Origin: an uncultured Acidobacteriota bacterium
GTDB lineage: Bacteria; Acidobacteriota; Blastocatellia; RBC074
DNA length: 64,000 nt
Direction: 5' to 3'
Assembly: GCA_963796275.1 (NCBI GenBank)
Contig: CAWCKY010000004.1
Span: 1,472,001 to 1,536,000, forward strand
The notes under the pieces: model-generated
The model's input: the letters and a program-made list of their open reading frames with translations, nothing else
Told to the model about the DNA's origin: nothing
The model's database searches: none
In this document: positions 28,350 to 60,794 of the stretch, piece after piece
How the letters are laid out: each line of letters opens with the position of its first letter
Position numbering within the stretch: position 1 is the first letter of the stretch
Program-made: the position numbers and the translations under genes

Positions 28350-28413
<64 letters not shown>

Positions 28414-28425
<12 letters not shown>

Positions 28426-32300: not shown

Positions 32301-33149
32301 TTAGTTGACCTTGCTGAGCGCCCTTTGAAGCACATCGAGCGAGTCGTTGAATTGGCTCCAGGCATCATTCAGAGACTCCACCTGCTCGCCGAACATTCCC
32401 CGCTCCTCCATCTGGATGTTGTACTCCCTGACGCGATTCTCGATCTGGCAACGAAGATCCTCGATTTCGGATTCAAGCTGTGCAATCAGCAACTCGTAGC
32501 TGGCCAGTTCTTGAGTGAGACTGGCGATGCACGACGCGCACCTCTGGTCCTCGGGCGCTTGCTCCTGTTTCGTGAGGTTGATTCTCGCCTCCTTTTGTTT
32601 TCCCTCCGCCCATGCTTTCTTATACATCTTGTATTTCAGTTCGCGCTGCAGCAGTTCAAGCTGATTATCCATTCGAATGAGTCGTTCACGATTGGCGGCG
32701 AGGTCTTGGCTGCTCCGCCCGATGGAATTTCTCAGATACTCGTCTAGATCTCTGAGATCGGCTTCCGGATCGAAGATGCCGTTGCGAAGCCGGTCGTCGA
32801 TCCTCTTAATCATGTTCAATCGCGTCGTAACGATGGCCTCGAGCTGATCCTTTAACTGAAACGACGCACGCACAGTCCTTCCGATGTTGCTCATCGTGGT
32901 GATCGCATTTTTTTGCTTCAATACGAGGTCATCGGCGGCCTTGAGCACACCGCCCAGCGTGGTAAGCTGGTTAACAAGATTCGTGTAATGCTGAAGCCAT
33001 CGATTTGCTTCTTCTACTTTCTTTGCGACCTGAAGCGTGTATTGCGCCGGGTCGTAGACTGTCCACTGCGCCTGTGCTTGTGGCGGTATAAGCAGAACGC
33101 CGATCAGCAGCCCCAGCGCGAACTGACGAAGGAGAGATTTTCTTTTCAT
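32301..33149 (-). CDS. VirB5/TrbJ-like secreted helical protein
   Basis: Signal peptide ending AQA-QWTVYDPAQY (TrbJ/VirB5-type V.DP.N motif), coiled-coil body, position after virB4. Confidence 0.7.
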   Translation of the reverse strand: MKRKSLLRQFALGLLIGVLLIPPQAQAQWTVYDPAQYTLQVAKKVEEANRWLQHYTNLVNQLTTLGGVLKAADDLVLKQKNAITTMSNIGRTVRASFQLKDQLEAIVTTRLNMIKRIDDRLRNGIFDPEADLRDLDEYLRNSIGRSSQDLAANRERLIRMDNQLELLQRELKYKMYKKAWAEGKQKEARINLTKQEQAPEDQRCASCIASLTQELASYELLIAQLESEIEDLRCQIENRVREYNIQMEERGMFGEQVESLNDAWSQFNDSLDVLQRALSKVN

Positions 33150-33179
33150 TACTACCTCACTTCCTCTCACGAATCATAT

Positions 33180-36011
33180 TTATAAAAGCGCCTCGTCTAT
33201 CTCGATCAGTCCTCGCGCCGCCAGTCCTCGCGGATAGACAGTGGCCAGCCACGCTATAACCTTTGTCAGCGGCCAATCCCGCCTGAGCGCCGATACTCTA
33301 GCCCTCGCGTTACGCTCATATGGATTGGTGGTGAACGTCCACAATTCGGCGGGCGAGAGATCGAGTTGGATCATCTCCACGATCTGATCCTGTCCCGATC
33401 CGAGCGCCAGGACGTATTGCGCATACTCTCCCGCGATGTTGTGGATCGCGCTGATCGCCGCCGCCGCGTTTTCCGACAACCCGGCGTCCGCAATCAGCTG
33501 CGAACAATCGCCGATCTGCTTGCCGATGACCTTGATACCGGCAGTCTTCGTGACATCGTGGATTCCGGCAAAGTCTTCGTATGCATGCGTCGCCAGCATC
33601 GTCACGACCGCCTCTTTGCGGCCCATGCGAGCTCCTTTTTTGATCACCCGCAGAATCTCAGGGTACTGCGCCGCGATCTTCCAGACCTCGTCAAAGATCA
33701 GAAGCGCCGGCGTTCGCGTCCCGTCCGATTTGAGCCGGCCTATCGAACGCACCACTCGAGCCGCGACACGATTTGCCAATGTCTCGCGCACGTCCTGGGG
33801 GAAGGCGTCCAGACTGTCGAGTTCATAAACGTCATACGGCGAATCTGCGGCAAAGTCGGGATGCGTCGGCGCATCGAGCCAGGGATGGTCGCGATACTTC
33901 TCCAGGGCCAGCGCCAGCGTCGCGGCGCGCTCGCGCAATCCCACCGTCTGGAATGGATAACTTTCGAGCATCGCAAGCAGATGCGAATGCACTGGCTCGT
34001 GTTTCGGTCTGTCGTGGCCGTTCCGAGGAACTTCATTCCTGTAGACCTCGGTGATGACATTGGTGAGGATATCTTCCGCCACGTTGTCATCCGGCTTGCC
34101 CCTGGCCAGTTTCATCGCATCCATCACGACCAGCGCGATCTGCGTCTCGTCGGGCATCTCTCCCAGCTCCAGCCCCGGATAGTCCCAGACGTTAATGGCG
34201 CGCTTATCGTCTATGCTGAAGCGAAGATGTCTCCCTCTCGTCACATCGGCGTGCGGGCCCAGCGACTCTCCAAAATCCACGGCGCGCACCAGCGCTTCCG
34301 GCAAGGTCGCGAGCACGTCATTGATGACGCGGGCCATGAATGTCGATTTACCGCTCCCCGGCTCGCCGAGCACGAGAGCGAGCGGAGAGCTGATCTTCGC
34401 GCTGTCAAAGAGGTTCAGGCCGATCAACCTTCCAGTCGGCGTCGAGCAGAGCGTGTGCGGCCTCCGCGCTCCTTCCCATGCCGATTCAACCGGGGCGAGC
34501 GCGGCGAGCGATCCCGCGACCTCGGTGATCTCCCTGCCCATCGGTCGATGATCTGCTTCGCCGACGATCGCCCGGTGATATAAGGCACGCAGGGAATCCG
34601 GTTCCTCGCGCGCCGCCTCCACTCCGGGGATCGATTGCATTGCTGTGACCATCTGCTCGCAATACCTGTCGAGATTGTCGAGAGACTGCCTCAGTTCACC
34701 TCGCGTGCGTGCCGGTTCCGCGTAGATGACGGCGTAGAAACGCGTATCGATCAGCGCTTCTCTCGATCCGGTGACGTGATCGCGAACGGTTTCGAGATCG
34801 AGCAGCGCCGCGCGCGCTTCCGGTGACTGCTTCACACGCCCGTCCGCGCGTGTGTACGAGCGTCGTACCTGGCGTATGCGCCGGTCGAGACGTTTTGTGG
34901 CCTTGCGTTGGTCGAGGTATGTGAACTCGGCGATGATCGTGTGGCGAAAATTGAGTGACGGATTCAATGTCAATGAGCGCAATGCATCGGCCGTAATCGC
35001 CGGCTGCGGTGGAGTGAACATCGAGACGATCGCCGCTGGATGTGCCCCGTGCATAATGTGCGAGCCGCTTCCGTCTATCGTCTCGCCGCAGAGATATTCA
35101 CGAATGTCGAAGCCCGGCACAACTGGCAGTATCGGAACACTCCGCGCATTCTGCCTGTGGCCCAAATAGATCGCCTCCCACAACTCTTGCCGGTTGAAAC
35201 GCCGCAGTGACAACGGACATTCGCGCTCGATGAGGCGAAAGACCTTCTCCGCCCTCCCATACGCTTCCCGTTCATCTTTGAGGAGCCGGCGCACCACGCC
35301 GTCGTCGGCGGTCTCCGCCCAGATCGCGCGAATTGTTTTGGGAAGTTTCGTAATGCCGTGCTTTCCAACCTCATCCAGAGCGGCGGGAATGAACGCGCTC
35401 AATCCGCTGTTTGTATCATCTCCCTTCTGACGAACCGGCACGCGCGCCCAGATCGAGAGCGCCTGCCGGCGATAGCTGTGCGCCGCCGCCGCTGCCGCAT
35501 AGAAATCGATATTCATCGCGTGCAGCAGTGCCGCTTCAGGATGCACCAGCGCGGGATCGCCCAAGGCCGCAATATGCGCGTTGATCGCGGCGCCAGGGTC
35601 GGGACCGGACGAAAAACGGAACTGGATCACCGTCCCTGGCGGCTTGTCCACGGCGAGCATTCGCGCCAGTTCGTCACAACGTGCCTCAACGACATGTTCG
35701 TGCGCGAGCATCGTCGGCGCCGTCTGCGCCTCCCACGCGCACGTGTAGGATCCGTCGGTGTGCCGCAGAGCGCCGTCGCAAAATCCGGCAATGGAAGAGT
35801 CGCGCTTTCGACCCGGAGGTGAGGCGAGTTTCAATCGTTCTTCTTTATGTTCCGCAATTCGCCGGTGAAGTTCCGCTTCCTCGCTCCGCTTCCATGCTTG
35901 CAAATCTCGACGGGCGCGAAGCGCGATGGGCAGCAGACGCGATCCGGCGCTGATGCCCAAACCCGCGCCTGCCGCCGCGATGGCGCCTCCGATGATCGTT
36001 AACGGTTCCAT
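33180..36011 (-). CDS. virB4: VirB4-family T4SS ATPase
   Basis: 943 aa. Walker A GEPGSGKST, VDFG, INVWD, Walker B LLIFDEVW, RMGRK, C-terminal TTNPYER. Confidence 0.85.
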   Translation of the reverse strand: MEPLTIIGGAIAAAGAGLGISAGSRLLPIALRARRDLQAWKRSEEAELHRRIAEHKEERLKLASPPGRKRDSSIAGFCDGALRHTDGSYTCAWEAQTAPTMLAHEHVVEARCDELARMLAVDKPPGTVIQFRFSSGPDPGAAINAHIAALGDPALVHPEAALLHAMNIDFYAAAAAAHSYRRQALSIWARVPVRQKGDDTNSGLSAFIPAALDEVGKHGITKLPKTIRAIWAETADDGVVRRLLKDEREAYGRAEKVFRLIERECPLSLRRFNRQELWEAIYLGHRQNARSVPILPVVPGFDIREYLCGETIDGSGSHIMHGAHPAAIVSMFTPPQPAITADALRSLTLNPSLNFRHTIIAEFTYLDQRKATKRLDRRIRQVRRSYTRADGRVKQSPEARAALLDLETVRDHVTGSREALIDTRFYAVIYAEPARTRGELRQSLDNLDRYCEQMVTAMQSIPGVEAAREEPDSLRALYHRAIVGEADHRPMGREITEVAGSLAALAPVESAWEGARRPHTLCSTPTGRLIGLNLFDSAKISSPLALVLGEPGSGKSTFMARVINDVLATLPEALVRAVDFGESLGPHADVTRGRHLRFSIDDKRAINVWDYPGLELGEMPDETQIALVVMDAMKLARGKPDDNVAEDILTNVITEVYRNEVPRNGHDRPKHEPVHSHLLAMLESYPFQTVGLRERAATLALALEKYRDHPWLDAPTHPDFAADSPYDVYELDSLDAFPQDVRETLANRVAARVVRSIGRLKSDGTRTPALLIFDEVWKIAAQYPEILRVIKKGARMGRKEAVVTMLATHAYEDFAGIHDVTKTAGIKVIGKQIGDCSQLIADAGLSENAAAAISAIHNIAGEYAQYVLALGSGQDQIVEMIQLDLSPAELWTFTTNPYERNARARVSALRRDWPLTKVIAWLATVYPRGLAARGLIEIDEALL

Positions 36012-37030: not shown

Positions 37031-37773
37031 ATGAAGAGGACTGAAAACATCCTGTATTGCAGAGATTTTCTTGTTGATGATTGCTACTACGGCCAGCTGC
37101 GCAAGAAAAAATGTCGAACGATCGCGTGCGAGCAAATGATCGCTCGCAACGAGGCGAAGCACCTGCGCTCGCGTCAAAACCTGATCAGGATTCTACGCGA
37201 TCAGCCGAGCTTCTGGATCGAGTTGCAGGCAATAGCGAGGCGGCTCAAAACAGAGCCCGCGTGGTTGTTGAATGTGATGGCGAGCGAATCATTGTTCGAT
37301 CATACAGCTCGCAATGGGCTTTCCGGACAGACCGCCACAGGATTGTTGCAGTTCATCGAGAGCACGGCGCGGAACATGGGGACGACCACCGAAGCGATCA
37401 GTCGAATGAGCCCTGTCGAACAATTGCGCTTGGTCGAGAGATACCTCACGCCGTTTTGCGGCCGTCTCAACAGCCTGGCCGATGTTTACCTGGCGGTTTT
37501 TCGAGGCTTCATCGTTAAAGGAGGAGATGCGACAGTACATCGCGCCTCTCGATAAATCAAGTAAGAGAGCAGCGTATCTATTCGTTAAACAGGTGGCTCG
37601 ATTTCGATGGTGACGGCAAGATATCCAAGGGCGAGCTGGCGCTCGCGGCGCTCGCCATCGGCCGATTCCAACCAATCACGCCACGGTCCGGCGGGAGACT
37701 CTATCGCAACCCTGCGGAAGCCCCTGATCCTAAGACTGAAACTCCACAGACCCGTTCGATCTATTTTCGTTAG
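37031..37773 (+). CDS. Lytic transglycosylase (VirB1-like), frameshifted; probable lipoprotein with C-terminal EF-hand-like loop
   Basis: WLLNVMASES, ATGLLQFIESTA, QLRLVERY. An alternate N-terminal frame reads LLMIATTASC. An alternate C-terminal frame reads NRWLDFDGDGKISKGEL up to TAG at 37773. Confidence 0.75.
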
Positions 37774-40206: not shown

Positions 40207-40253
40207 GTGGCTAGTGACGCGAAACTCCGCCGCGTATAGCTACCCGCGCGGAA

Positions 40254-42279: not shown

Positions 42280-42393
42280 TTACATCTCACTCACGGACGT
42301 TTGGCTTAGTAGACGTATAGCCGAGTGTTCATAGATTGCCCTGGCCACTGCTTTGCCTTACAATGATTTTTCTCTCCGGATTTGGCCATTCCG

Positions 42394-42593
42394 CATCAAT
42401 TAAACGCTGTTATCTTTAATCCGGATATCGCGGCAGTAGCGTGACAGAACAAAGAATACTGTTAACATCCTTTGCAAGTCCTGGGAAAGTTCTGGGAAAT
42501 ACCTGAGAAAACACTGGGAGGTCCCGACTCTCATGCAGCCTTCAGCCAGACTCGTCTACCATTTTGGCCTTTTCCGGCTCGACACCGGCGAAC
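42394..42593 (+). repeat. ~200 bp diverged direct repeat, copy 1: divergent promoter with 11-bp-phased CTGGGAAA boxes plus first ~20 codons of the regulator
   Basis: Aligns with 46467-46669. Boxes at 42481, 42492, 42503 and 42514. Confidence 0.85.
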
Positions 42594-45500: not shown

Positions 45501-45614
45501 TGGGAATGCAGCCTGACAATACTCAATCGGCTGGCTGACTCACTTGGTGAGGACGAACCGCTGTATCAACATCTAGTTGAGCGTTTGCGAAAACAGGTGG
45601 TCTACCCGCTTTGA
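42533..45614 (+). pseudogene. OmpR/CadC-type winged-helix + AAA ATPase + TPR-like transcriptional regulator, disrupted
   Basis: wHTH motifs (TPKAFEIL, VWPDVFVEE, IQTIPKRGYRF), Walker A GEPGIGKT, LEDLHWSD, TDGNPLF. In-frame TAG at 43133-43135 and a frameshift near 45172. Confidence 0.85.
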
Positions 45615-45685
45615 GTTGTTTTGCTTGGTGGATGTTTACCAACCGCATAAAAGCTAACTCTCCCCTTCTCTCCCTCGCAACACTC

Positions 45686-46455
45686 TCACTCATGCCGTCT
45701 TGTTACCTCACTTACTGCTGTTGAGTTCTTTGAGGCGCGCTGCCAGGCGCCCGATTCGTGACAACTCAGGCAGGTTATGCGGGTATTCTCGGCGGCCTTG
45801 GGATCCTTCTTCCATTTCCTGGCGACAGATTCATAGGCAGTGTTGCTTAGCGTGGCGATTATCTTGTCGAGGTGTTGGGTCGACTCTTCCGTGCGCCCGG
45901 TCCGCATAGCGGAGGCGGCGAGCCCGCCGAGAAGCTCGCCGCGAAGATGCAGTGGAAGCTGGTTGACAACGGGAGCCTGCTGTTTCCAGAGCGCCTGGTA
46001 AGAGTCATAGGCTTGCGACCAGGCGGCGGCGCGATGTTCCTTCGGCAGCCGGTCACCGAAGGTCACGTAAGTGGCTCCGGCAATCGCGGAAGCCTCGCCA
46101 TCTTTCGAGCCGATCAGTTGGGCTTGAGCGAATAGATCGAGCGCCTCTCGGTATTTCTGCTGAAACTCATCGTTGCGATTATTTTCGTGGGCGATCACAG
46201 CGCGGTAAAGTGTTGCGCTGGCTTTCCAGGCCAAAAGTGAGGATTTTGCGGCGGGACGTTTTTCGAGCAGCGTCTGAATATTCTTTTCTCCCCTTCTAAA
46301 ACGCTCCATGTCATTGGCCAGGAAGCCAGCAAAGAGATCTCTCGCACGAGAGTATGGACAGTGATTCGAGTGTCCGAGAGTGGCGGTTCCGGAGATTGAG
46401 CCATTGCCACGGTGACACATAACACCGAAAGAAAAGTCTTGCTGATTCGATACAT
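45686..46455 (-). CDS. Secreted helical protein with a single C-terminal CxxCH heme-binding motif (frameshift near 46340)
   Basis: Signal MYRISKTFLSVLCVTVAMA-Q from ORF 46195-46464 joins ORF 45686-46420, which ends ITCLSCHE. Confidence 0.7.
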
Positions 46456-46466
46456 GGTCTGCACCT

Positions 46467-46692
46467 CATCAATTAAGCACTGTTATCTTTTAAACCGGAT
46501 GTCCCGGCAGTAGCACGGCAGAACAAAGAATACTATGAGCTCCCTCTGCACGTCCTCGGGAGTTCTGGGAAAAACCTGGGAAAACTTTGGGAGGAATCGA
46601 CCTTCATGCGGCCGTCCGCAACCAGATTCATCTATCACCTTGGCCCTTTCCTGCTGGACACAGCTGAACCTGGACTCCCCAGTATCAGTTGA
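46467..46692 (+). pseudogene. Second copy of the regulator promoter plus a 28-codon stub of a paralogous wHTH regulator
   Basis: The ATG at 46606 gives MRPSATRFIYHLGPFLLDTAEP versus MQPSARLVYHFGLFRLDTGER at 42533. Similarity stops at ~46669. Confidence 0.8.
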
Positions 46693-46754
46693 CCTGCCGT
46701 GTTCTCCCCGCCCGAATCAGAGCGCCCAACTCGGGTTTAATAATCCTTTTCTCC

Positions 46755-46887
46755 GGCTGTCGGAATATCCGACACGAATGCGTCGGATTATTCGACATGG
46801 AGGTCACGGACAAACGAAAGTTGTGTTGAACGAAGCTATTATGTGAAGAGAACAAGACTGCCGGACAACCGACGCTACAATATCTAG
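46755..46887 (+). repeat. ~135 bp diverged direct repeat, copy 2
   Basis: TGTCGG-AATAT-CCGACA (46758-46774), CGTCGG-ATTAT-TCGACA (46781-46797), TGCCGG-ACAA-CCGACG (46859-46874). Confidence 0.85.
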
Positions 46888-47100
46888 TACAAAAGGGCTG
46901 TCATGATCACAACTAATCGCATCTGTCTCTGTCCAATTCATTTCTCTCTTACACATGGCTCCCACGCGAAGAGTGATCGCCGTTTGTCAGTATCCTGAAT
47001 ATACGGAGAAATTCTCTATACACTTTTCTGCGCAAACTTACGAATTTGAATGCATTCCTGCGTTTTTATTCCAACAGTAATCGATCGACCGCAATCGGAA

Positions 47101-47115
47101 TGGCACATAGCTTGT
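47101..47115 (+). promoter_or_regulatory. Sigma54-like -24/-12 element heading the rightward transfer operon
   Basis: TGGCACATAGCTTGT = GG-N10-GT, ~55 bp upstream of the first ATG (47169). Confidence 0.45.
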
Positions 47116-47168
47116 TTAGAGGTTCAGTCAGGTATTCGCATTATTTCTAGCGAAGGGAGTCTTACACG

Positions 47169-47655
47169 ATGAACGAGGCTGGCGTGCAAATAAGGGATTA
47201 CATGAGAAACTTCGTCGCCAATCATGTGGATATTAGCGAAGGCAAGGTGGCGCTCAAAGTTTCGGCGAGAGAGGTAGAGATACTCGGAGAGTCACTGGTG
47301 AAGGAATTGATCGGCTGGGCGATGGAACCCACAAGTTCCCCGTGGCCTGAATATGGTAGCTACAACACCGATTTCCTAGCCGGCCTCGGCACACCAGCAA
47401 CTGGATAGATGTGAAGACGACGTGGTGGTCAAATTCACATCCCGGGATGTGCTGGCGCTGGGCCAGTTATTCATCCTGGGAGTACTCAGATGGGTGCAGA
47501 GCATACAAATAGCGCGGCGACGCGCTGACCGACTACGTGAAGCCATCCTCGCGAAACAGGCGGAGTTTAAGGCTGAATTTGAAGAAGACGATAAAAACGA
47601 CAGCGCTAAAGACCTGTTTAACCAAAGCACAAAGTGGAAGGTTCGATATGAATGA
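47169..47655 (+). CDS. Two small hypothetical ORFs (47169-47408, 47422-47655), possibly one split gene, at the head of the transfer operon
   Basis: AAGGGAG RBS before 47169. The second ORF overlaps the virB8-like start. No recognised motif. Confidence 0.45.
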
Positions 47656-48437
47656 TGTTCAAACCATAGAACTTCATCCAGGCCGTGACGTGATCGCCGG
47701 CGAGACAGGCAGGGCCGAATCGGGTCACATCGAGGAACGCGATGCGGCCACCACACAATCGTCTCTTCATACCTTATACCGACGATCCCGCAGATGTCAG
47801 AACCATACTGAGCATGGCCGCGACGGGAACGCTGCTGGCGCTTCTGCTGCTCGCGAGCGTCGCGCTCAACATCTGGCAATACTGGCGGCGGCCTGATCGG
47901 ATCGTCGTGGATCGTTCCTCGGGCAGAGTGCTGCAGATCAACGACCGTGAATACGGCGAGACGGAAGCGGTCAGACTGGGTCCTGACAGTCTCACCAACG
48001 CTGATAAGCAGTACATTGCAGGGGAATTCGTCAAGGCGATCTATCAGGTCGATCCTGCAACACGCCCCCGCGACATAGAAAGGGCGCTCCGAATGATGTC
48101 CCCCAACAGCGCCCTTCTATTCGCCCGCTACCTCAAGCAAACAGGCATTCTCGACAAACAACGGGCCGAATCCTGGCAGGCGGTCTGGACGCCGCAGGAC
48201 ACCTCGGTCGACGGGGCGGTATCCCTACACGGTGCGCGTAATCGGCAAGCAGGAGATTACAAAAGTCATTTCCGGCGCCCCTAACAGGAAGCGCGCCAAT
48301 TGCACCTGACGCTAAAGCTCGCCGCCGATCCGCAAAGGCGGGCCGACCGCAACCTACGCTCAGGGTTTCTCGTCTCATCATTCGACTACCGGGAGCTCGG
48401 AACGCCGGAATCATCGGAGGTGGAGGCGCCTCGATAG
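47648..48437 (+). CDS. VirB8/TrbF-like bitopic protein (several frameshifts)
   Basis: TM LLALLLLASVALNIWQ then PDRIVVDRSSGRV. A C-terminal frame reads NLRSGFLVSSFDY (VirB8-type NPxGFxV). Confidence 0.7.
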
Positions 48438-48458: not shown

Positions 48459-49698
48459 ATGTCCAAACACAGGCACGGCACTATTACTCTGGCTGTGATC
48501 GCTATCGCCCTCTTCACCAGCTCTGCGAAGGGGCAGGTAAATTCAAGCCGCGACAGAACGGTGGAAACCAGGAAAGAGAGCACGCAAGCGCCACAGCAAG
48601 GATCGAGGGAGTGAGAGCGGCGCAAGTGTTCCCTCCCCGGTCGTGCTTGCCAATCCGCCCTCGGCCGATTTCCTAAGTGGTGAGGCGAACGTGGCGGTGA
48701 GCGGCAATCAGAATCCGGTCATCAGGCTCGGGCTTTCTCCCAACGGCGTGACGATGATCGAATTCCCTGTCGCTGACCGTTTTTTCGCCCTCCATCCCGG
48801 CAACAGCGACCTGGTGACCATCGACGAATCTCCCACCAAGGGAACCGATCATTTTCTGGTCGTGCGGGCAGGCAGCGGCTTCTCTTCTCCCGTGAATATG
48901 GCTAATGCGCGCCGCGCTCCAGTCACATCGATCATCGTTCAGATGCAATCGGGACTGGTCATGACCTTTCTCTTCTACCCGGTGCAGCAACTCTCTGAGC
49001 AGGCGCATCGCGTGGTGATCGCTTATGACCGGGAAGAAGTGATCGCGGCGCGGCGAGCCGCAGGACTGGCCGTCAACCTCGATGGCGCGGAAGCAGGGAG
49101 ACCGCGTACCACATCGTTGCGCATATCTTCTCCGCCGCCACCTGCGCCGGATGAATCGGCGCCCGATCTCGCTCGAACACCGCCCACGCCAAAACTGGTG
49201 GCTGACACTGCCGAAATCGACACAACACAGCCCCCGATAAAAAGCGATCACAAAAGCAATGATCCGGCACGACTCGCCAGTCTGGCTCTCACCGAAGCGA
49301 CCAGATCGCCGCGAAGCTTCAAGAAATGGAGCGACTCGGTGCATGGGCTATCGCTCTCCGTCACTCCCGTACAGGAAGCAGGCAAGAATTCTCAGCTGGT
49401 CGTCATCGCGGCCCGCAATACGAAGAAAATGGATGCGCGCATCGTGGCCGGACAGCCTGATATCTATCTGGAAACGCACGACGGCAAGGGCAGACCGCTT
49501 CAAATTGAGCCGGTCAGAAAACTCGCGATGGAAACCACGGCGACCGATGGAGTAATTCCCGGCGGCGAGACCAGATACTACGCGCTCGTATACGAGGCTA
49601 AGATTATGGGCGCACGGCAGCAATTGCGTGCCGCTCTCGGTCAGACGACATCGGCCGATGAACCGGCGACCGCGATCCTGACCTCGTCCAAACGTTGA
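48459..49698 (+). CDS. VirB9/TrbG-like outer-membrane core protein (frameshift near 48610-48640)
   Basis: Signal peptide from ATG at 48459, then PVIRLGLSPNGVTMIEFP and a two-domain beta structure with a Pro-rich linker. Lies between the virB8- and virB10-like genes. Confidence 0.65.
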
Positions 49699-51122
49699 AG
49701 GAATCACAGATGAATCCATCCGGAGATGGCTGGAAACAGAATATCGCAGTGGGCGTCGCGGAGCGCGATACCGGCGACACGAACGAGGAGCCGGCCACAT
49801 TTATCTCTCTCGATGATGACGAAGACGACAATACGGAATCTCCGGCTGATCAATCGGGGCGACGCGCAGCCAGCAGGCGCAAGCGGATCGCAGGGGCAGT
49901 GTGTTTTCTACTCATCTTAATCGTCGCGGGTGCAGGTCTATGGATGATGGTGGGCGGCGGCGGTAAGACGAAAATCAATGTACCAGTGCGTGATAACGCC
50001 CAGAGAACCGATCAGGTGGCGCGCGAGAATGCTGACGAGACGGCGCAGGCTATCGCCGAGGTCCGCAGCGCTACAGCTTCACCGACGCCAACCGCGAGCG
50101 CGTCTCCTGTGACAGAGGCGCCAGAAGCGACAGGTGGAACGAGAACGATCATTATGCCGACCACGCCAGTCACGGTACCCATTGAGGGAACCGGCTCCGT
50201 CGTTTCACCTCCCTCGACGGAAGCGGACCCGAGGGAACAAGGCGGCTCATCTCGACCACAGGCAGGCGCGGCGGCGAAACCAATAGGAATTGATTCGGAA
50301 CGCAATCCCGAGCGCTCGATCCGTTGCGCTCCCACACCCTTGCCTGTCTCCGCGCACAAGGCCTTCACCAGCGCTCCCGCGAACGCCAAGCCGTCTGAGG
50401 ACGCTGTGTCCGTGATTCTCAAGCAACCCGAGCCTCGTACTCGTGTCGTGTTACCTCCATTCGGCGCAATGTTGCCTATCAGGACGACGGGTGCTCTCTA
50501 CACTTTGCGCCCTGGCCTCGCTCGCTTCGAACTCACGCGTGATGTGCGCGGGCAGGGTTGGCATCTGCGAAAGGGCACGATGGTCATTGGCCAACAGCAG
50601 GGCAGCGAATATGACCGGGCATATATCTCGCTTATGGGCTTCATCGACCCCGAATCCAAACGGTTCGTGAAGGCGCCGGGAGAAGTGTTGGGCGCGGACG
50701 GCGCGCCGGGATTGCAGGGCAAGCGAAGACAGGTCAGCAGCCGGTGGGGGCGCGTTCTGGGGCGCGTGGCGACCAGCGCTGTCTCCCTGGGGCAGGCGGC
50801 GCTGGCGCGCGGAAACTCGACGACCGTCGTTCTGCCCGGTGCGGTCGCGCCTGAATTGATTCCGAGCGTGGCCAGCCGCCGTGAATTTGTCGAAGTGCCT
50901 GCCGGCACACCCGCGTTCGTGATGATCACAGATCTGCCGAAAGAGGCGCAGGCAGTAGACGCCGAGCCGCTCGTTGAAGGAATCGAAGAGCCGCTCACGG
51001 ATGAAGAATTGGCCGAGCTGCTCTCATCGGATTCGCCGGAGAAGATTCGCGCCGCAATGCCACGTATGACCCCAGAACTGCGGCGTATTGCCGACGCCGT
51101 GTTGAAAGAGCAGAACAGATGA
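49695..51122 (+). CDS. VirB10/TrbI-like core complex protein
   Basis: N-terminal TM, Pro/Thr-rich linker, C-terminal KGTMVIG...DRAYI...GADGAPGLQG...EVPAGTP. Confidence 0.75.
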   Translation: MKESQMNPSGDGWKQNIAVGVAERDTGDTNEEPATFISLDDDEDDNTESPADQSGRRAASRRKRIAGAVCFLLILIVAGAGLWMMVGGGGKTKINVPVRDNAQRTDQVARENADETAQAIAEVRSATASPTPTASASPVTEAPEATGGTRTIIMPTTPVTVPIEGTGSVVSPPSTEADPREQGGSSRPQAGAAAKPIGIDSERNPERSIRCAPTPLPVSAHKAFTSAPANAKPSEDAVSVILKQPEPRTRVVLPPFGAMLPIRTTGALYTLRPGLARFELTRDVRGQGWHLRKGTMVIGQQQGSEYDRAYISLMGFIDPESKRFVKAPGEVLGADGAPGLQGKRRQVSSRWGRVLGRVATSAVSLGQAALARGNSTTVVLPGAVAPELIPSVASRREFVEVPAGTPAFVMITDLPKEAQAVDAEPLVEGIEEPLTDEELAELLSSDSPEKIRAAMPRMTPELRRIADAVLKEQNR

Positions 51123-51180: not shown

Positions 51181-52210
51181 ATGATACAAAGAAACCTTAA
51201 TAAACCTGCCATAGATCCACGCGAGGTACTCGAGCAGGAGGGCGTCGATGCGCTCGCGGAGTCGCTCGCCGGCGTAGGCTACATCATCCAGCGACGCGCC
51301 CTCATCGATCTTGCACACGCGCTACGCAGTCGCAAGCCGCTGCTCATCGAAGGACCGCGAGGCGGTGGCAAGACGGCGCTGGCTGAGAGTCTGGCGTTAG
51401 CATGCAATCTGACGAGTTTCTATCTGCAAGGCATGGACGATCTGACTATCGCCGACGTGCTCTATTCGTGGGATCGCGAAGCGCAGACGCAGATGGTCAG
51501 ACAGGAACTTGCCGCCGGCACACCGCTTTGGGAGGCGCAGACAAAACAGTTTACACGCGAATATCTGATCCTGGGCGAAGCACTTGCGGCCTTCGATTAC
51601 GCGGACACGTACTTCGATCCACCAGTATTCATACTCGACGAGGCCGACAAGCTCACCGAGAAGATCGAGGACATGCTGCTGCAACTGCTCGGACGCGGCT
51701 GCGCCCACGTGCCGCGCTTCGGGAACATCGGCGTTCGTGACCGATCGAGATGGCCGATAGTCATCCTGCTCTCGAACGACATCCGCCACGACCTCTCGTC
51801 TCCTTTGCGATCGAGATGTCTTTACACTTGGCTCGAGCCGCCGACGCCGCGCGAAGAGGTGCGAATTCTGCGCGCGCGCGTACCTGATGGCCTCGGCCTA
51901 TCTGGTGGGCGGCGTGACCCGGCTGATCAACTGCATCCGGCGCGATATGCCGGCTGTGCGCGATAAGCCAGGACTGCGCGAATCAATAGACCTGCTGGAA
52001 GCGCTGGTAAGAGACGGCGTCGGTAATCTCACGGCGGAAGTGATCGATCAATACCTGTGTTTTCTGGGCAAGCGGCACAAAGAGTTACTCAATCTGCGGC
52101 AAGGGCTTGCGAGGCTGGAGACGGCCGCGCGCCGGGTCGACTATGAGATCGATGAATGGGTGGAGTGGGCGTTTGCGAATGAGGCTAATGTGATGGAAGA
52201 AGCGGCATGA
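51181..52210 (+). CDS. MoxR/CoxD-type AAA+ ATPase (frameshift near 51888)
   Basis: LAGVGYI, KPLLIEGPRGGGKTALAE, LYSWD, ILDEADK, PIVILLSN, LSSPLRSRC, then KPGLRESID in ORF 51887-52210. Confidence 0.85.
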
Positions 52211-52863
52211 AGGGCAGCGCCATGACTCATAAAACATTCAAAACATATCGTGCCACCATATTGATCGCCGGTCTGGCAGCCTCGCTCGTCATCGCGGTTT
52301 CTCATGATCGCAACTACTTCAGGCTGCGCGCAGTCGATCCCAGCGTGACGATGGAATTCGGTTAAGGATAGCGATCGGAAAACCAGCTTCCGCCAGACAA
52401 ATCATATCGCCACGACATTGACGGTGAGGTGGCGCGCACGGCTGATCGCATCGGCGAGGCAACGGCTCTGGCGCTTTCAGCCAGTCTCTACGCCAGCAAG
52501 CGAGCAAATCAAAGGACGCGCTCCGCGCGACGCGCCAGACCTGCTAGCCGGGATCGCGGCGAAGAATCTTCTGCCTCCCGGACTCTCATTCACACAAAAC
52601 GGCGGGCTCGTCTCCGCATACAGCGCTCTTTCAGTCCGCTATCGCCCAGCGCCACTCGGCATCGAGGTCGTCTCCATTGGCCACGAGATGAAGGCGGTCC
52701 CGCTTTAATTGTACGCATACCCGATGAGCTCTCGGACAAGGGCGAGGCCAAACTCTTCGTGGCCGGTTCACTGAGCAGCGTGAGAGTACCCGCGCCGTTC
52801 GCACCGACTGCCGAGGTGATCGCTCTCGGCTGGTCGCCCGAAAGCCTGCGTTCACTCAAATAA
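52207..52863 (+). CDS. Pilin-like putative lipoprotein, paralog A (multiple frameshifts)
   Basis: ATGA overlap with the MoxR gene. Reconstructed N-terminus LIAGLAASLVIAV-LMIATTSGC. Body shares motifs with 54866-55393. Confidence 0.5.
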
Positions 52864-52882: not shown

Positions 52883-54869
52883 ATGTCACTCGATCAATTC
52901 TTCAAACGAATAGATGCTCGCTACCGGATGCCCCGTCCGGCGAACGCCTTGCATCTGGATGCTTACCAGGCCGGATTCCGTCTGCTGCGCGATATCGGCG
53001 AAGGGTTGGCGCTCGTGGCTTCCGGCATCGCGACATCCTTCGTGCTGTGGAAGATCGCCGATGTGCTGCTGCGCGTTGGCGTCGAGATACACGTCTATAT
53101 GATTTTCGGCATGGCCCTCGTCGTATTCATCGGGCTGGCCGAAGCCTCCACGCTCGTGATTCCCTACTACCGCATCTCGCAGCGACTGACGCATGGCTCC
53201 GCCCGCTGGGCGGACGTGCAAACGCTTAAAGATCTGGAGCTGGCCCACGATAACCGGCTGCCGCTGCCAGCAGGCGCGCTTCGCCTGGGAAGGTTGACGC
53301 ATCGATATGACCTTGCCTTGCCCTTTGAAAAGGCGCTAACCCACCTTGCGATCTTCGGCCCTCCGGGTAGCGGTAAATCATCGAGCTTCATCATGTCGAT
53401 GGCTAAAGATTGGGCGAGGAATGGCTCGGCGATCTTCCTGGACCCCAAAGGCGAGCTTTTCAAATACACCGCGCGCCATTTCAGGCGAGTCTATCGTCTC
53501 GACCTGGCCGACCCTCGATTGTCCGACCGCTGGAACTTCGTGCCGGCCTGCAAAGGTGATGCGGAACTCTCTCACGAGATAGCGTCGATCGTCGTTGGCT
53601 TCGACTTCAACAAGCATTACAACGGCGATCCGTTCTGGCCGCAGGCCGAAACGGCGCTGATGACTTCCCTGCTCCTGCACCTGCCGCAGATAGCTCACAA
53701 TCCCAGCCCCGCGATGATCGCCGAGTTCATCGCCGCCCGCGGCTTCGACGAGATCAACCACGAGATGAAGGAGTCGCCTGACCTCGAGGCGCAGGTTCAA
53801 TGGGGAATTTTCAAGAAGGCGGATCGCGAGAAGACGCAGGGCGGCGTCTTCGTCGGCCTTGGGACGAAACTCGCGCCGCTGCGCTCGCCTCACGCGATGG
53901 CGGTGATGCAATCGGTTACCGAGGAAGAGCGCGAGCGCGGTCTCCGCGAGATCGATCTCTATCAGCTGCGCGATCCGGGAACCGGCGTCTACGTCATCAT
54001 CCCGGAAGGCGACGCGACGCGCTACCGGATCGTGCTCTCGATCCTATTCGGTCTCGCGGCCTCGATCACGCGCAAGACGAGCAATGACGAGAACGGCGCG
54101 CCGGTGCTTCTCGCGCTCGATGAGGCCGGAAATATTCCTCTCCATAATCTGAGCGAAGCCCTCGGCGTGGGCAGAGGCAGACGATGCGGCATCGTCCTGG
54201 GTTATCAGAATATCGGGCAGCTCTACAAGCAACATGGCCGCGACGGCGCGCAGGCGATCCTCGGCTCGATCGGCACGATGGTCTTCCTGCCGGGGCTGGA
54301 TGCCGAGACAGCCCAGTACGCAGCAAAGAGGATCGGGCGCACAACCGTCTTTCAACACTCGGTCGTCGACGCGACGGGCGACGTTTACGACCACGACCGT
54401 TTGTCCGAGACAGGGCGCGATCTGCTCGATGCGGCGGAACTGCGGCAGATGGCGGAGCACACGCAGGCGGTGGCGATCATCGGAAGCGCGCCGCCGGTCA
54501 GGTTCGGCTTTCCGCATTGCGCCAAGGGCGGTCCACTCGCTCACCCGTTGCCGCGCGAGATAGCGCAGCCGGTATCTCTCGCAGACGCCGAAGCCGCATT
54601 CACAACGACGCGCAAAACGGATGAGGTAAAAACCCCTCGGGATAAGCCCACACCCACACCAAACGTTATCCCTCCCGAACCCTACTTCGATCGCGATCAT
54701 GGGCGATCAGATCGATGAAGATGAGGAGATCATCCCGCTGGATCCCATTCTCTATCCCCTCATCGAGGAGCGGCAAACAGGCTTATCGCATTCGCCCATC
54801 CCCGAGAGCGTTAGAACAGCTGACGCCGTCCTGACGCGCATCAATGGCGAGGAGGAAGCAGGGGCGTGA
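52883..54869 (+). CDS. virD4: Type IV coupling protein VirD4/TraG (C-terminal frameshift near 54690)
   Basis: Two TMs, THGSARWA, Walker A GPPGSGKS, LDPKGEL, WNF, DPFW, LALDEAGNI, GYQNIGQL, RDLL. The shifted frame continues as an acidic tail to TGA at 54869. Confidence 0.9.
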
Positions 54870-55393
54870 ATTCCAACGGTAAAACCAGGCTGAGAATCTC
54901 ATTCGTTCTGCTCTGCTCGGCGCTTGGCGCGCTCGTCATTACACACGCCTCCGCATCCGTTATGGAAATATGGCAAGCGCGCCAGCAGACGCCGCGTCTG
55001 GCGGTTGACAGTCTGGTGAAAGCGCTCCGGACGTATCACCGGCAGACGGGAAGATTCCCTACCGACTTCCGCGAATTGGAGGTCCGCGTCTGGAAGCACA
55101 AGAACCCTCCCGACTTCGGCCCCGACGGTCGTAGCCTGTCGATCGCCAACTACCACTATATCTATCATCCGGCCGGCGTCCGCGTCTGCACGATCTGGAT
55201 CATCCCGACAGGGCCGCGTCGTGACGAGGGCGCCACCCACTTTCTGCTCCTCTATCCTGACAATCTCCGCCGCTGGAAAGGTTCTCCGCTCTCGCTCGAT
55301 GAAATCAGAACGCTGCCGCCGGTACCACAGTACCGTGAGATGGCGCTCTTCGGTATGACGGAACAGCCGCAGATCGGCCTGGCCAGGAAGTAG
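54866..55393 (+). CDS. Pseudopilin/GspG-like protein, paralog B
   Basis: N-terminal hydrophobic helix, then SLVKALRTYHRQTGRFPTDFREL (GspG-type AL..Y....G.FP....L) and NYHYIY...TIWIIPTG. Confidence 0.55.
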   Translation: MNSNGKTRLRISFVLLCSALGALVITHASASVMEIWQARQQTPRLAVDSLVKALRTYHRQTGRFPTDFRELEVRVWKHKNPPDFGPDGRSLSIANYHYIYHPAGVRVCTIWIIPTGPRRDEGATHFLLLYPDNLRRWKGSPLSLDEIRTLPPVPQYREMALFGMTEQPQIGLARK

Positions 55394-58300
55394 TGCGGGA
55401 AATTATGCGCGCCGTGGTCAAGGTCAAACCGATGGGAGGCAAGGGCGCTTCCCGCGTGGCTCGTTACATCGCGGAAAGCAAGCTCGATCCCGTTCGCGAG
55501 GGCAAACGACGCCCCTTGTTCTCGGACCGCGATGGCGATCCGGCCGGGAGCGACGACCGGACATATCGCAAAGCCGACCGGTACCTGAGCGGCGGTCGCG
55601 GTGCTCCGCTCAAGAAAAACCTCATCCATTTCTCGGTCAGCTTTCGCGAAGAAGATTTCAAGCGTCTGGGTGCAAGCGACGATGAACGCAAAGGTCGATT
55701 GCGCGATGTAACGCGCGAGGCCATGGCCGGGGTTCAAGACGATCTGAACGTGGCCGGCTGGCGATGGATCGCCGGAATTCACCTCAACACCCTTCATCCA
55801 CACATCCACATAGTCGGTCACAAAGAAGTTACCGACCGCGAGACGGCCCTGCCACGCCGCCTGGGAAAGCTTCCCAAATGGATGCTGCCCCACAAAGAGC
55901 GGGAGTCTGACACCGCGATCCAGCCGGTGGACGGCGGCATCGCCGGGCATTTCATCGCGGCGCTGAACCGGGGACAGGAGCGTGCGAGGGAGGCGGAACG
56001 AGCAAGAGAGGATATCGCTATGAGCCCCAATAAGACGAAAAAATCGATTTCTCGTAAAGCAGTAAGCGTGAGGAAGGCCGAATTCTACAGGAAGGATGAA
56101 GCGCGCAGACGCGCGAACCCTCCCTGGCTCGATCGCATGCTGGAGATCGCCTCCCGTAACCCATCGCTCGGCGGGCGAGAACTGACGCTGGACATCCTCG
56201 GGCGAGAATCGAGGCTGGAACCGAAGCACGTAGAACCGAACTCGACTGACGACAGGGTCCGAGAGGAACCGAACCCGACTGACGACATCCGCTCCGCTTT
56301 CGCCAACGGGGGTTTGGACAATTCAGACTATCGTACTCCGCGGGATCAAGCCGCGTGGTTGGGCGAATACAGCAAGAGCCTGCGTGATCTCTACGAGCGT
56401 GGCGCTGAGGTCAAAGGCGACACGCTGATCATCCCAGCTGAGGAGCATGAGGTTCCGGACGAGCGCGATCACATACGCGTCATCAGCATCTCGCACGCGT
56501 TCGAGAAGATTCGAGACCCGAAGCTCGCGATGGAATTTCATTCCCTCGCCCGCGCCATCGCCGGGGAGTCCGCCGACACGGGAACCGAGATCAAGTTCTT
56601 TAAGCAATACTACGATCTGATCGAGCTCGATGCCGAAGGTAACAGACTCGACCGCCAGGATAATAATTACGAGAAAGAGCGCATAGCGGCACTCGACCGG
56701 ACGCTTGGGGAGATGCGTTTTCTCGCCGGCGAGATGGCGAGACTGGAGACGAAAGTGAGTCTCGACATAGTCCCATCGATTATGGAGCGCTCTCACGTCT
56801 ACCGGCATATTCAGGATTACGAGCGGGCCTCTGAGTTCTATTCGCTCGCCCAGGTCATCGCCGGGCCGGATGCCGATCTGCAAAAAGAGACCCAGGTCTT
56901 CAGCTACTACTACGGCAAACTCGAGAGAGATGACGCGGGACACCTGTTGACTCCAGAGAACGAGGCCGGAAGGCTGCAAGCCATCGATCGGACGGCCGCG
57001 GAGATGCGCCACGCGATCGAGCAGAAGGCAGAGATACCCGAATATGACGGAATCGCTCATGCTGTGGTCTCCCTCGATGAAGCAGCGGAACGCGAGGACA
57101 GGCACGAAGAAGATGAAGAGCATTCATTCATCGACGATGCGATCGATTATGGAGCCGGTGATGACACGGATGATCTTGACGGACCGGAGTACGAATACAC
57201 TATCGAGGAAGCATACGGTGAGCGCGAAGCGGAGGCGGCGGCCTGGCAATTCAACACCGCCGCGCGCAAGGTCAACCTCAAGCAGCTGAGCTTTCCCGGA
57301 GGGCTGGCGCCCGCGACCAAAGAATGGTTGATCGAGTTCAAAATCCCGGAGATCGATAAGCGGATCGAGAACGGCGCCAGCCTCATCGATAAAAAAGATA
57401 AAGACGGGGCAGTGCTGGAAAAAGGCATATTGTCCGACATCAATCGACTGGTCCAGCCCGAACGCGTCGAAATGTTGCGAAGAGTATCGGAAGCGGCGGG
57501 GGTGCGTGGAGACGAAGCACTTGTTCGCGCACCTAATACCAATGATATCGCCGAAGCCAGGCGCATACTTCTCGAACTTTGTGCTCACGAGAAGAGCGAG
57601 TTGGAGCGCAGGCGCGAGTTGCGCTCGAGGCTCGATTCAAACGACGAACGTGATCCGGGAGAAGCACGGACAAGAGTAGACACGGGCAGCTCCTACGTCT
57701 TCAATGGCAATACAGCCGCCCGTCTCGGACATATCGAAAGATTTATCGATGGTGTCCAGAAAAACCAGGTCGAACCCGCCGCGGGCCGGAGATCGATCCG
57801 TCCTTCGGATTCCAGCCTCTATGTGAGCCTGTCGAGCGACGATGAAGCGCCGCGCCTGCCAGCCGGCAATATCCGCGTCTACGATGCGATAGAGAAAATG
57901 GCGACCGGGGCAAAGCTCCAATTGTCCACCTGGATCGGTAGAGACGGCCCGGCGCTCATCAACGGTTTTACGGAGAAAGAATATGATTATCGGGTGAAGA
58001 TCGCCGGGTTCCTCAGAAGCTACGTCCAGGAGCGCCTCCGCGACCCGGAAACCCGCATCGCTCACGACAACGAAGACTTCCGCATCGCCCGTAATGCGCT
58101 CGACCGTGCGCGTGATTATGGAGAACTCAACCGCACGGCTTATGCCTTCATGAGCAGGAACGAGCGTGAGGGCAGACTGCTCAGCGAACAGGAGCGCCAG
58201 CTGCTCTTCTACGGCCGCACTCCGGATCATTACAAACCGCAGATGAGAGAACTACGGCAAGCCTGGGGGTTGCCGCGAGAAGGGCGTGAACAGGCGCTGC

Positions 58301-60794
58301 GCGACGGGCGGCTGCCGCCGTCCGCGACACTCATCAAGATGACCGATGAGCTTGAATCGCGCCGCAACGTCGAGTCGGTACGCCAGTATCAGAAGTCCTT
58401 GACGACTCCTCCCGAACAGATGCGCAACCCTGGCAGACTGCCCCTGTACCAGATGCATAAAAAGCTACTGGGGCACGAACGGGATTATCTTTTCCATCTG
58501 ACCGAGGAGATGAAACGATACCTGCCGGGTAAAGAGCCTCCGGTTCGCGAAGCGGAAAAATCTCCCGATGAGGCGGCGACGGGTCGTGCGTTCGGCGAAG
58601 CCCCAAATGAGAGCAAGTCATACAAGGAATACCTGGCCTCACTCGGAGAGATCAAGCGGCGACTGCTCGAAGAAGCTGTTTCACGCTTAAATAATGATAG
58701 AGGTTCGATTAACCACGCCGAACAGGTCCGAGTTCACAATCGCGCCTGCGACCTCGCCTGGGAACGACTCACATCCGAGGAAGTCTTCTCTTCACGGCCT
58801 TCAGAGCAGGCCCTTCGTTTGAGCGATGTGATAGCAAAGCTACAGGAGGAAGCGCAACCTCGGGCCCGGCTGGCGACTCAGGTACTCGATGAGTTCAGCA
58901 AAGAGAACATCCCGTCTTACGCAAATGGCCGGGTTCCCAGGGACGCCCTGGAACAACTGGATCCGTCTCTCAAGGATCGCTATAAGCAGCTCAAAGACTA
59001 TGCAAGCAGGACACGCGAGAGCTGTATCGTGGCTTCGAGGCTATCGATGGGATACGGAAAGAGATTGAAAAAGCTCGCGCCGAAGAGCGGATGGCTGATC
59101 GGATCACTCTTGGCAATGCGATCGTCGCCGAAGCACGTTATGAATGTGCGAGACTGGACTATGAGACGGCGCGCGATCACGGCGAGACATTCCGTTTTCG
59201 TATTCGTGACGAAAGCCTGAAAGCTAACCGCAGGATATCCGCGTTCGACGTCGAACGGCGCGCGGATGCCCGAGGAACGAGGGCCGCCGGCGAACGCGGG
59301 GCCGATCGCGCGGAGGAGCGACGGGGCATCAGGCAGGAGGTCGCGGCGCTCGACCTGGTCAATCACGCGGCGACCCTGCTGGAGCACGGTACAGTTCAGA
59401 GAACCCGGGTCAACAAACTCAAGGCGGAATCCGACAGGGCCGCGTACGAGAGCCTGATGGCCCAGGATAGAGCTCAGGATGTCAGGGCGAAATATCAGGA
59501 ACGCGGGGAGCAGATTCCAGCCCCTTTCATCAAGCGAAAGACGCTGACCGAGACTCAGGAACTGACCGTCAGGCATGGGCTCGCGGGACAGACCGAAACG
59601 CTCGAACAAATACGTGTAGCGCAGTCGAAGGAATTCAATCGGCCCGCGCGTACGGAGACTGAAACGGCCCGCCTCCGGGCGCAGCTATACGTTGCCCTGA
59701 CCGACTTCCAGGTGAGAGAGGAACGTGCCTCGCGCTACGATCGAACGCGACATCTCAGGCAGTGGGAGTTCGGCGGTGAGAAATGGTCGCTGGCCGATGT
59801 CGACCGGAAAATCGAACGGCTATCCGATGATGGCAAGATATTCGGCAGATACGAGCTTCACCTTGATTCCCTTGACCGCGAATCCGCGAAAGACGAGATC
59901 GGACACCAGAAAGCGATAAGAAATGAGATCGTCGCCAGGACCACGGAGCATCAGGGCGAACTGCGCAATCAGAAAGAGAGAGCGGGCGAGCTTGTCCAGA
60001 CGCTTTCCATTGCCTATGAACGCGAATCGGAGCGTCGCGCACAAACCGGCCAGGAGATACCGAATCCGATATTCGCGCGAGACGAGCTCGAGCGCATTGC
60101 GGACAATGCCGCCACGACGCGCGACGCAGCGATGCTCAGGCAATTCTATGAGTTCGAACGAGGATTCAACAACTATGCCGCTCCGAAGGAACAAATCTCA
60201 CCGGAGCGGCAGCTTGCGCGTGCGCTCGGCCGCGAAACGATGGCGGAAGTCTTCCTTCACGAGAGCGCGGAAAGGCTCTCGAACTTCCGGGACAGGAAAG
60301 ATGTTCAGCCTCTTCTGGTCGAAATGCCAGACGGCCATCTCATCACCCGCAGGTACACGGACACACAGCCGCGGTCGCCCCTGGAGCGGATAGCCCACCC
60401 CTTGATCGAGACTCCGTCGGAGCGCGATATCCGTGAATCGGTAAGGACGGCTCTGCAACATCAGCAACACTACCTAACTGCCGACCTGGAGAAGAGTCGG
60501 GCCTACTTTGAAGCGGCGAGGGAGATCGCCGATACCCTTTCCTACGGCAGAGAAAATGGCAGTTATATAAACCCGCCTTCGCGGGAATTCTCGCCGAAAG
60601 AGGAGATGAACATCGAGGTCTTCGCCGAGCGGCTGACTGACGAGGGACAGCGGGAACATTACCTGAGCCTTGTCGACCCAGAGCGTGGTTCCGCCACATC
60701 CCGACACGATTCACATAACAATTCTGATCACCAGAGGGAGGCGGCAACGCTCTCCCCGGATATGCCTGTGCCCGGAGTGGCGCGCGGGCGCTAA
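55393..60794 (+). CDS. Large HUH relaxase (MobP/MobL-like), ~1800 aa after joining a frameshift near 59020
   Basis: VARYIA (catalytic Tyr), IHFSVSF, AGIHLNTLHPHIHIV. ORFs 55393-59220 and 59091-60794 overlap. C-terminus ends ARGR. Confidence 0.85.

Follow-up and report, generated by a model that had tools for sequence, protein, structure and literature searches.

Type IV secretion systems (T4SS) are described as drawing their energy from three ATPase families, namely VirB4, VirD4 and VirB11. A conjugation gene cluster carried by an uncultured Acidobacteriota bacterium of the class Blastocatellia (assembly GCA_963796275.1, contig CAWCKY010000004.1) raises a question about the third of these. 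The window analysed here is the whole stretch of 64,000 nucleotides at positions 1,472,001 to 1,536,000 of that contig, and coordinates refer to it unless another contig or locus is named. The gene at 51181..52210, on its plus strand, occupies the place that virB11 has in classical virB operons, after virB10 and ahead of the gene for the coupling protein, and its product is an AAA+ ATPase of the MoxR class. What kind of ATPase is this, how firmly does it belong to the secretion system, and what might it do there? The original prediction had placed a MoxR/CoxD-type ATPase in the VirB11 position, with no von Willebrand factor A (VWA) partner. Our comparative analyses indicate that this MoxR-class (CoxD/NorQ/CbbQ-like) ATPase is a fixed, vertically co-inherited part of a lineage-specific conjugative T4SS of integrated Blastocatellia elements.

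Class, fold and descent of the ATPase

The motifs on which the prediction relied are all present, GYI, PLLIEGPRGGGKT, LYSWD, DEADK and LRSRC in frame 1 and KPGLRE in frame 2, and the assignment to the MoxR/CoxD type rather than to VirB11 held in profile, fold and identity comparisons. The Pfam model AAA_5 matched the N-terminal open reading frame (ORF) of the window with 46.8 bits (cut-off 22) and the copy of the gene at another locus of the same genome (L007) with 47.4 bits, while T2SSE, the family of VirB11, gave no Pfam match for the ATPase. The best NCBIfam model, MadB_ATPase (NF047784), reached 96.6 bits, which is below its equivalog cut-off of 475 and leaves the protein outside that family; a weak match to TIGR02640 (GvpN) was also obtained (20.5 bits). 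When a profile of 55 family members was compared with solved structures, midasin AAA modules and NorQ were retrieved, with NorQ as the stand-alone PDB entry that matched best in sequence. Further, the AlphaFold (AF2) model of an intact homologue, P0001, had a mean predicted local distance difference test (pLDDT) value of 94.8, and its top Foldseek matches were NorQ, CbbQ2 and cso-CbbQ (E about 1e-12, target-normalised TM-score 0.73-0.75). These members of the CbbQ/GvpN/NorQ group are the best structural matches, yet they share only 16-18% identity with the T4SS ATPase, which is some 80 residues longer.

Ten residues (G58, G61, G63, K64, D153, E154, K157, N199, R212 and R266) are invariant in the 55 sequences, down to 31% identity; following AAA+ conventions, we take them to belong to Walker A, Walker B, sensor 1, the arginine finger and sensor 2. 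Since the catalytic residues do not vary, the family appears to be under selection as an active ATPase, and K64, D153/E154, N199, R212 and R266 are all kept across the two ORFs into which the gene of the window is split. VirB11 has the same gene place, after virB10 and before the coupling protein, and is also a cytoplasmic P-loop ATPase, presumably hexameric; however, it is a RecA-like traffic ATPase of the PulE/T2SSE type, whereas the T4SS ATPase has the arginine finger and lid domain of an AAA+ protein and belongs to an unrelated fold class. In accordance with this, no PF00437 match was found in the element, and the only one in the genome lies on another contig (C6:1118604-1119774).

Among the nearest characterised relatives is CoxD, a MoxR-class chaperone that acts in CO dehydrogenase maturation in Afipia/Oligotropha carboxidovorans (plasmid pHCG3) and has the same AAA_5 core, the same insert between Walker A and Walker B, and the same catalytic motifs. 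Identity is 33% to this protein and 35-36% to a CoxD-type paralogue of the studied genome (35% over residues 25-295), whose gene adjoins a CoxE VWA gene, XdhC genes and a molybdenum hydroxylase. Compared with this paralogue, the T4SS ATPase is longer at both ends, by about 24 residues at the N-terminus, where the proline of a DPR/NPR motif is nearly invariant, and by about 45 at the C-terminus. It is not CoxD proper, as it has neither a cox/xdh-type cluster nor a CoxE neighbour and is set apart from the CoxD clade by a fully supported branch (described below).

A search for a VWA partner agreed with its predicted absence. The Pfam models VWA_CoxE, VWA_2 and VWA (PF05762, PF13519 and PF00092) had no match in the window, the nearest ones lying 15 kb before its start and, weakly, 41 kb after its end; around the other two copies of the element in this genome, none was found within about 40 kb, the nearest lying at distances of 43 kb and of over 100 kb. 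By tblastn, a CoxE-like gene was found in none of 26 T4SS-type loci (511 kb), as opposed to 16 of 19 lower-scoring CoxD-like loci, where it lay within 1.5 kb of the ATPase gene (15 of 18 when locus L048, from the unpublished genome G049, is left aside) and where molybdenum-enzyme genes also adjoin. NorQ and CbbQ likewise work via VWA proteins, NorD and CbbO respectively; for the T4SS ATPase no such partner was found.

Among 1.84 billion representative sequences, 72 clusters matched the family at E<=1e-30 with full-length coverage, followed by CoxD-like proteins of about 300 amino acids. Profile scores were bimodal in 401 Acidobacteriota genomes: matches of at least 339 bits over the whole model occurred only in genomes of the class Blastocatellia, and those of about 145-210 bits, restricted to positions 20-315, were spread phylum-wide. 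In a maximum-likelihood tree of 142 sequences, a single branch with a Shimodaira-Hasegawa-like approximate likelihood ratio test (SH-aLRT) value of 100 divided the rows into two clades, one of 81 that includes each of the 24 T4SS-linked sequences, spread over six subclades, and one of 61 with the CoxD of the studied genome. The closest homologues are T4SS-linked and not VWA-linked, and they form a separate clade of proteins of about 342 residues, so that the prediction was not refuted on this point. Four of the genome-contig loci (75-82% identical) lie in three other metagenome-assembled genomes, whose depositor labels, taken as deposited, are Gammaproteobacteria, Clostridia and Spirochaetales; plasmids in PLSDB yielded CoxD-level relatives only, below 60% identity.

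Position and conservation within the conjugation cluster

In the window the ATPase gene starts 58 bases past the stop codon of a VirB10/TrbI/TraM-like gene (49695-51122), and its stop codon (TGA, 52208-52210) shares bases with the start codon (ATG, 52207) of the following ORF, which encodes a bitopic membrane protein referred to here as TM217; both the direct succession to virB10 and the ATGA coupling had been read correctly. Synteny was assessed by tblastn with the proteins of the element in 12 close loci (the three copies of the studied genome and 9 of 15 genome-contig loci, the six omitted ones measuring at most 5.6 kb) and in 14 distant loci taken from 9 further genomes of Blastocatellia. 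The ATPase gene lay inside a T4SS/relaxase cluster in all 26. A VirB10-like gene was found upstream in 11 of the 12 close and 12 of the 14 distant loci, TM217 downstream in 12 of 12 and 13 of 14, and a VirD4 gene after the ATPase in 11 of 12 and 11 of 14, some of the misses corresponding to contig ends. Further, an ATGA-type overlap joins the VirB10 stop to the ATPase start in at least 11 loci, and the ATPase stop to the TM217 start in 8 loci as well as in the window.

The ATPase also changes at the pace of the coupling protein VirD4 and of VirB4. Relative to the L007 copy, its identity is 71-76% in the 9 close genome-contig loci and 33-49% in the 14 distant loci; the same comparison gives 66-73% and 31-45% for VirD4, and 57-72% and 33-49% for VirB4, and in the close group VirB10 and TM217 have lower identities than the ATPase. 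These values indicate that the ATPase and the two motor ATPases have diverged to a similar extent, and that it is as conserved as they are.

Co-occurrence was examined in 121 genomes of the class, with a threshold of E<=1e-65 for the ATPase. The ATPase was present in 28 genomes and the matching VirB4 type in 32, all 28 being among the 32; none of the 89 genomes without this VirB4 type has the ATPase. The four genomes with VirB4 only are G171, G346 and G370, which contain fragments of VirB4, and G408, whose element has no VirB8-to-VirD4 arm. No cluster missing the ATPase alone was seen among the 32 genomes. Related elements keep the gene, as the prediction required, and the ATPase appears from these comparisons to be a core gene of the Blastocatellia T4SS type, present in conserved order wherever the cluster is complete. 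The co-occurrence counts overstate independence because the genomes are kin.

Integrity and possible roles of the ATPase

Predicted as one gene at 51181..52210, the ATPase gene has the expected start, end and neighbours, but it does not run in a single open frame. Its N-terminal part (51181..51885, plus strand; 235 codons in frame 1) is 94-95% identical to the 342-residue proteins P0001-P0006 and holds the extension with the DPR motif, Walker A, the H2 insert, Walker B, sensor 1 and the arginine finger. Frame 1 (51181-51966) then ends at a stop codon after 261 amino acids, and the remaining 107 are read in frame 2 as the C-terminal part (51887..52210, plus strand; 107 codons, corresponding to residues 236-342 of P0001), which comprises the lid domain, containing KPGLRE (sensor 2), and C-terminal helices peculiar to the family. 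When the DNA was aligned with that of five homologous loci, the frame shift fell at 51885..51886 on the plus strand, where the window has a single surplus base (alignment column 66, about position 51885). The closest database proteins, of 342 residues and 94-95% identity, are unbroken and read ...RILRARVP-MAS... over the junction. A programmed frameshift was ruled out, as all homologues read in a single frame. Among public sequencing runs, the best contained 0.24 of the sampled words of the stretch, and none reached half.

The assembly (9.46 Mb, 7 contigs) is broken in many other places. The rpoB gene is scattered across four or more open frames and rpoC across three (both in C6:1266086-1274588), and gyrA (C6:1026136-1028543) is cut in two at residue 176, while secA is intact. 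Because rpoB, rpoC and gyrA are essential and cannot be pseudogenes, the assembly must carry many indel errors, and pseudogene or fusion calls in this genome need independent reads. Within the window, TM217 has four frame switches in a three-frame reading, the relaxase is in two ORFs, a regulator is broken into 42533-43135 and 43160-45187, and a LarC-like gene lacks the first 163 profile positions. In the L007 copy, an 815-residue ORF suggested a VirB10-ATPase fusion; the normal VirB10 C-terminus and stop codon were found in another frame, so this ORF reflects one more frame break and no fusion. Two tandem paralogous genes for bacterial alpha-2-macroglobulins of about 2000 residues each were also observed at 5860-18400 on the minus strand, one in two ORFs (16364-18400 and 12271-16461) and the other in three (8800-11952, 6803-8920 and 5860-6861), broken at other points.

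The frame break at about 51885 is most likely, and with high confidence, an assembly or sequencing error, and on this reading the organism probably makes the full 342-residue ATPase. The alternative, that the window copy is a true pseudogene of a decaying element and nothing functional is encoded at 51181-52210, would account for the break in the ATPase gene together with the four in the next one, for an insert of about 10 kb with regulator genes between the SLT and VirB8-like genes, for the shortening of the latter, and for the second copy in this genome (on contig C3) being also in pieces. We regard it as very improbable, given that essential genes are broken alike and that both ATPase parts, the surplus base aside, match intact homologues without any stop codon. 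Hardly more probable is a passenger in the operon, with a role unrelated to transfer such as cofactor or metal insertion in the manner of CoxD and NorQ, element maintenance, or defence. The nearest characterised relatives CoxD, NorQ and CbbQ are indeed enzyme-maturation chaperones, and cas genes adjoin the ATPase gene in one metagenome locus (L069); however, a passenger would hardly hold a fixed place between virB10 and virD4 across 33-95% identity, with overlapping stop and start codons, and none of the 121 genomes has the ATPase without the matching VirB4 type. Besides, no molybdenum-hydroxylase, Nor, Rubisco or VWA genes occur in the 511 kb of T4SS-type loci, and PADLOC, searched for a defence role, gave matches at the P-loop level only.

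That locus belongs to a basal subclade (P0181), from which three metagenome loci (L069-L071) were examined, with mostly unrecognised neighbours. In L069 (6711-18486) the ATPase gene is flanked on one side by a MobF/TrwC relaxase and on the other by a CRISPR-Cas module of type I-G (Csb1, Csb2, Cas3g and its extension protein), and the locus could represent a mobile element with a CRISPR system of its own. The direct contact with a relaxase, where no T4SS genes were detected, suits another explanation, in which the ATPase acts on the substrate by remodelling the relaxosome or by unfolding the very large relaxase (1275-1985 residues) before handing it to VirD4. Substrates of T4SS must be unfolded for transfer, we know of no dedicated unfoldase for them, and in T4SS-type loci the relaxase gene lies two to three genes downstream. 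Nonetheless, the tightest coupling is with the VirB10-like gene and TM217, not with the relaxase; L071, of the same basal subclade, has no recognised relaxase in 9 kb; and MoxR-class ATPases are, to our knowledge, not established as protein-threading unfoldases. We consider a substrate role unlikely.

Conservation, gene coupling and intact catalytic residues argue instead for a putative role as an assembly factor or third ATPase of the machine itself. We judge it somewhat probable that the ATPase acts as a ring at the cytoplasmic face, using ATP to assemble or remodel a part of the machine that it recognises through its clade-specific ends. Such a ring would be a hexamer, its targets could be parts exposed at that face (VirB4, VirD4 or the VirB10 tail), and binding would be direct, by the family-specific N- and C-terminal extensions, with no VWA adaptor. 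A more specific proposal, which we find possible but rather doubt, is that the ATPase serves as the third motor of an undescribed T4SS type, functionally replacing VirB11, docking adaptor-free on the base of the machine via its terminal extensions and driving the assembly, or the extraction and loading, of a pilin-like membrane protein. A complex prediction of the ATPase with the N-terminal tail of the VirB10-like protein (residues 1-95) scored 0.00 and gave no answer, which is evidence neither way.

Several points weigh against an assembly role for a core component of the machine. Every locus with a known context, as opposed to 57 metagenomic members of the clade, belongs to a single class, and the loci do not therefore count as independent; in the basal subclade L069-L071, no recognisable T4SS genes were found within 10 kb of the ATPase gene. 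Nor is a replacement required a priori, since many T4SS types do without VirB11, and known ATPases of the CoxD/NorQ/CbbQ kind work via VWA adaptors, which are missing here. Finally, none of the Logan contigs of related strains (90-99% alike) spans position 51885, and the window copy could be a true pseudogene.

The Blastocatellia element and what its ATPase may mean

The cluster is read in the order VirB8-like, VirB9-position, VirB10/TraM-like, ATPase, TM217, usually VirD4, a 175-residue membrane protein, and a large MobP/MobL-like relaxase, with the SLT, VirB3/2-position, VirB4/TraC-like and TrbJ-like genes upstream and divergent. In the window, the divergent arm includes a protein in the TrbJ/VirB5 position (32301..33170, minus strand; TrbJ E 1.4e-4, DUF4141 20 bits) and the VirB4/TraC-like ATPase (33180..36011, minus strand), whose matches to TraC-F-type (64.9 bits) and VirB4_CagE (45.4 bits) are both far under the cut-offs; an SLT lytic transglycosylase, VirB1-like, lies at 37031..37555 on the plus strand (SLT 30 bits). 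The following genes are all on the plus strand. The VirB8-like gene (47742..48398) was located by tblastn against the 341-residue protein of L007 and is shortened or broken in the window; its intact homologue in locus L016 matches VirB8 with E 0.0066 over profile positions 21-195. The 351-residue VirB9-position protein (48643..49698) was assigned by synteny and has no Pfam or NCBIfam match; we read the hydrophobic N-terminal segment of its intact homologue as a signal peptide. The VirB10/TrbI/TraM-like protein (49695..51122) matches TrbI with 21 bits, under the Pfam cut-off, and was assigned by synteny and alignment; its L007 paralogue reaches 25.2 bits for TraM and 23.9 bits for TrbI, and the protein consists of an acidic N-terminal tail, a single membrane helix and a conserved C-terminal domain.

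TM217 itself (52207..52863, plus strand) is recovered in the window by the three-frame reading, with an intact form of 217 residues in L016 (11008-11661). Its family comprises 360 hypothetical proteins with no Pfam domain, and searches of Pfam, NCBIfam, PADLOC and, at E<=0.001, Foldseek gave nothing. In the model (pLDDT 78.7), a disordered linker connects a membrane helix to a long helix packed on a beta-sheet; as a basic N-terminus precedes the membrane helix, the bulk of the protein is probably periplasmic. Eight of its top nine VIA-align matches were type IV pilins or pseudopilins, with Z values of 6.2-7.8 that are under the level proving kinship, and an Atlas search gave a weak T2SSG lead only (0.82). 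A pilin-like periplasmic domain is thus only a lead from the predicted fold, and TM217 could be a pilus or periplasmic part of the T4SS. It was also considered as a disguised VWA protein, which it does not resemble, as the modelled domain looks pilin-like, not of the VWA fold, and no VWA match was obtained.

The VirD4-type coupling protein follows at 52883..54718 (T4SS-DNA_transf 133 bits, with TraG-D_C and TrwB_AAD_bind; conju_CD1115 172 bits, under its cut-off). In three loci (L056, L058 and L060) VirD4 gave no match and a contig end is not the cause; L056 and L058 (G137:C40 and G386:C22) have no VirD4 match in the roughly 6 kb between TM217 and a relaxase-related gene, a gap that may hold a different coupling protein or other genes. 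The locus of G408 (L072, G408:C92:1-20000) has kept the VirB4 arm and the relaxase, and the whole VirB8-VirB9-VirB10-ATPase-TM217-VirD4 block is gone, so that it looks like a deletion derivative. The 175-residue membrane protein (54866..55393) follows VirD4 in 23 of the 26 loci and has no family match in Pfam or NCBIfam. The last gene, for the large MobP/MobL-like relaxase (55393..60794), is split into 55393-59220 and 59091-60794, with weak Relaxase/MobL and MobP3 matches, and is a single ORF of 1540 residues in L016.

The genome holds three copies of the element, one on the contig of the window (C4) and two at C2:689000-708999 (L007) and C3:54500-74499 (L008), the VirB4 proteins of the latter two being 72-74% identical to that of the window. 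A tRNA-Phe gene (GAA, 28350-28425) stands at the left edge of the cluster, before an AlkZ-like gene (28554-29630) and the T4SS genes, which begin at 30169, and is a likely integration site. The insert of about 10 kb (38000-47700), located where relatives have a spacing of about 0.6-1.2 kb, holds a sigma-70-region-2-like protein (40254-41405, minus strand), a Trans_reg_C + AAA_16 + TPR regulator (42533-43135 / 43160-45187) and a TPR protein (45174-45614).

Full-text searches of the literature, limited to main texts, turned up neither a connection between a MoxR-type ATPase and a T4SS nor a description of this type of element; one acidobacterial system of mating-pair formation type T (MPF-T) is mentioned in a part of Guglielmini et al. 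(PMC3548315). Our sequence comparisons support two features as new here, namely an extra, non-orthologous ATPase in a T4SS and, within the CoxD/NorQ lineage, a branch that has no VWA partner. Analogies can be named for each. GvpN, which takes part in gas-vesicle growth, is an AAA_5 ATPase acting with no VWA partner, and EccA, of the type VII secretion system, and ClpV, of the type VI secretion system, are accessory AAA+ ATPases dedicated to a secretion machine, acting in substrate chaperoning and sheath recycling, respectively. These are functional analogies only, with no specific sequence relationship, and their roles may not be transferred to the ATPase described here.

Systems without VirB11 have been assumed to manage without a third ATPase, and a conjugative-element lineage of a major soil phylum appears to keep an unrelated, chaperone-type AAA+ ATPase in the VirB11 slot. 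We know of no AAA+ core ATPase in a T4SS; should the third-motor reading be true, the one studied here would be the first. Pfam and NCBIfam barely recognise this T4SS type, most components falling under the cut-offs or matching no family, which matters for the counting of conjugative elements in Acidobacteriota. Should the target of the ATPase be the machine or the relaxase, non-orthologous replacement within a secretion system could be tested on this example, and the clade would constitute a natural VWA-independent branch of the CoxD/NorQ type, bearing on how MoxR ATPases recognise their targets.

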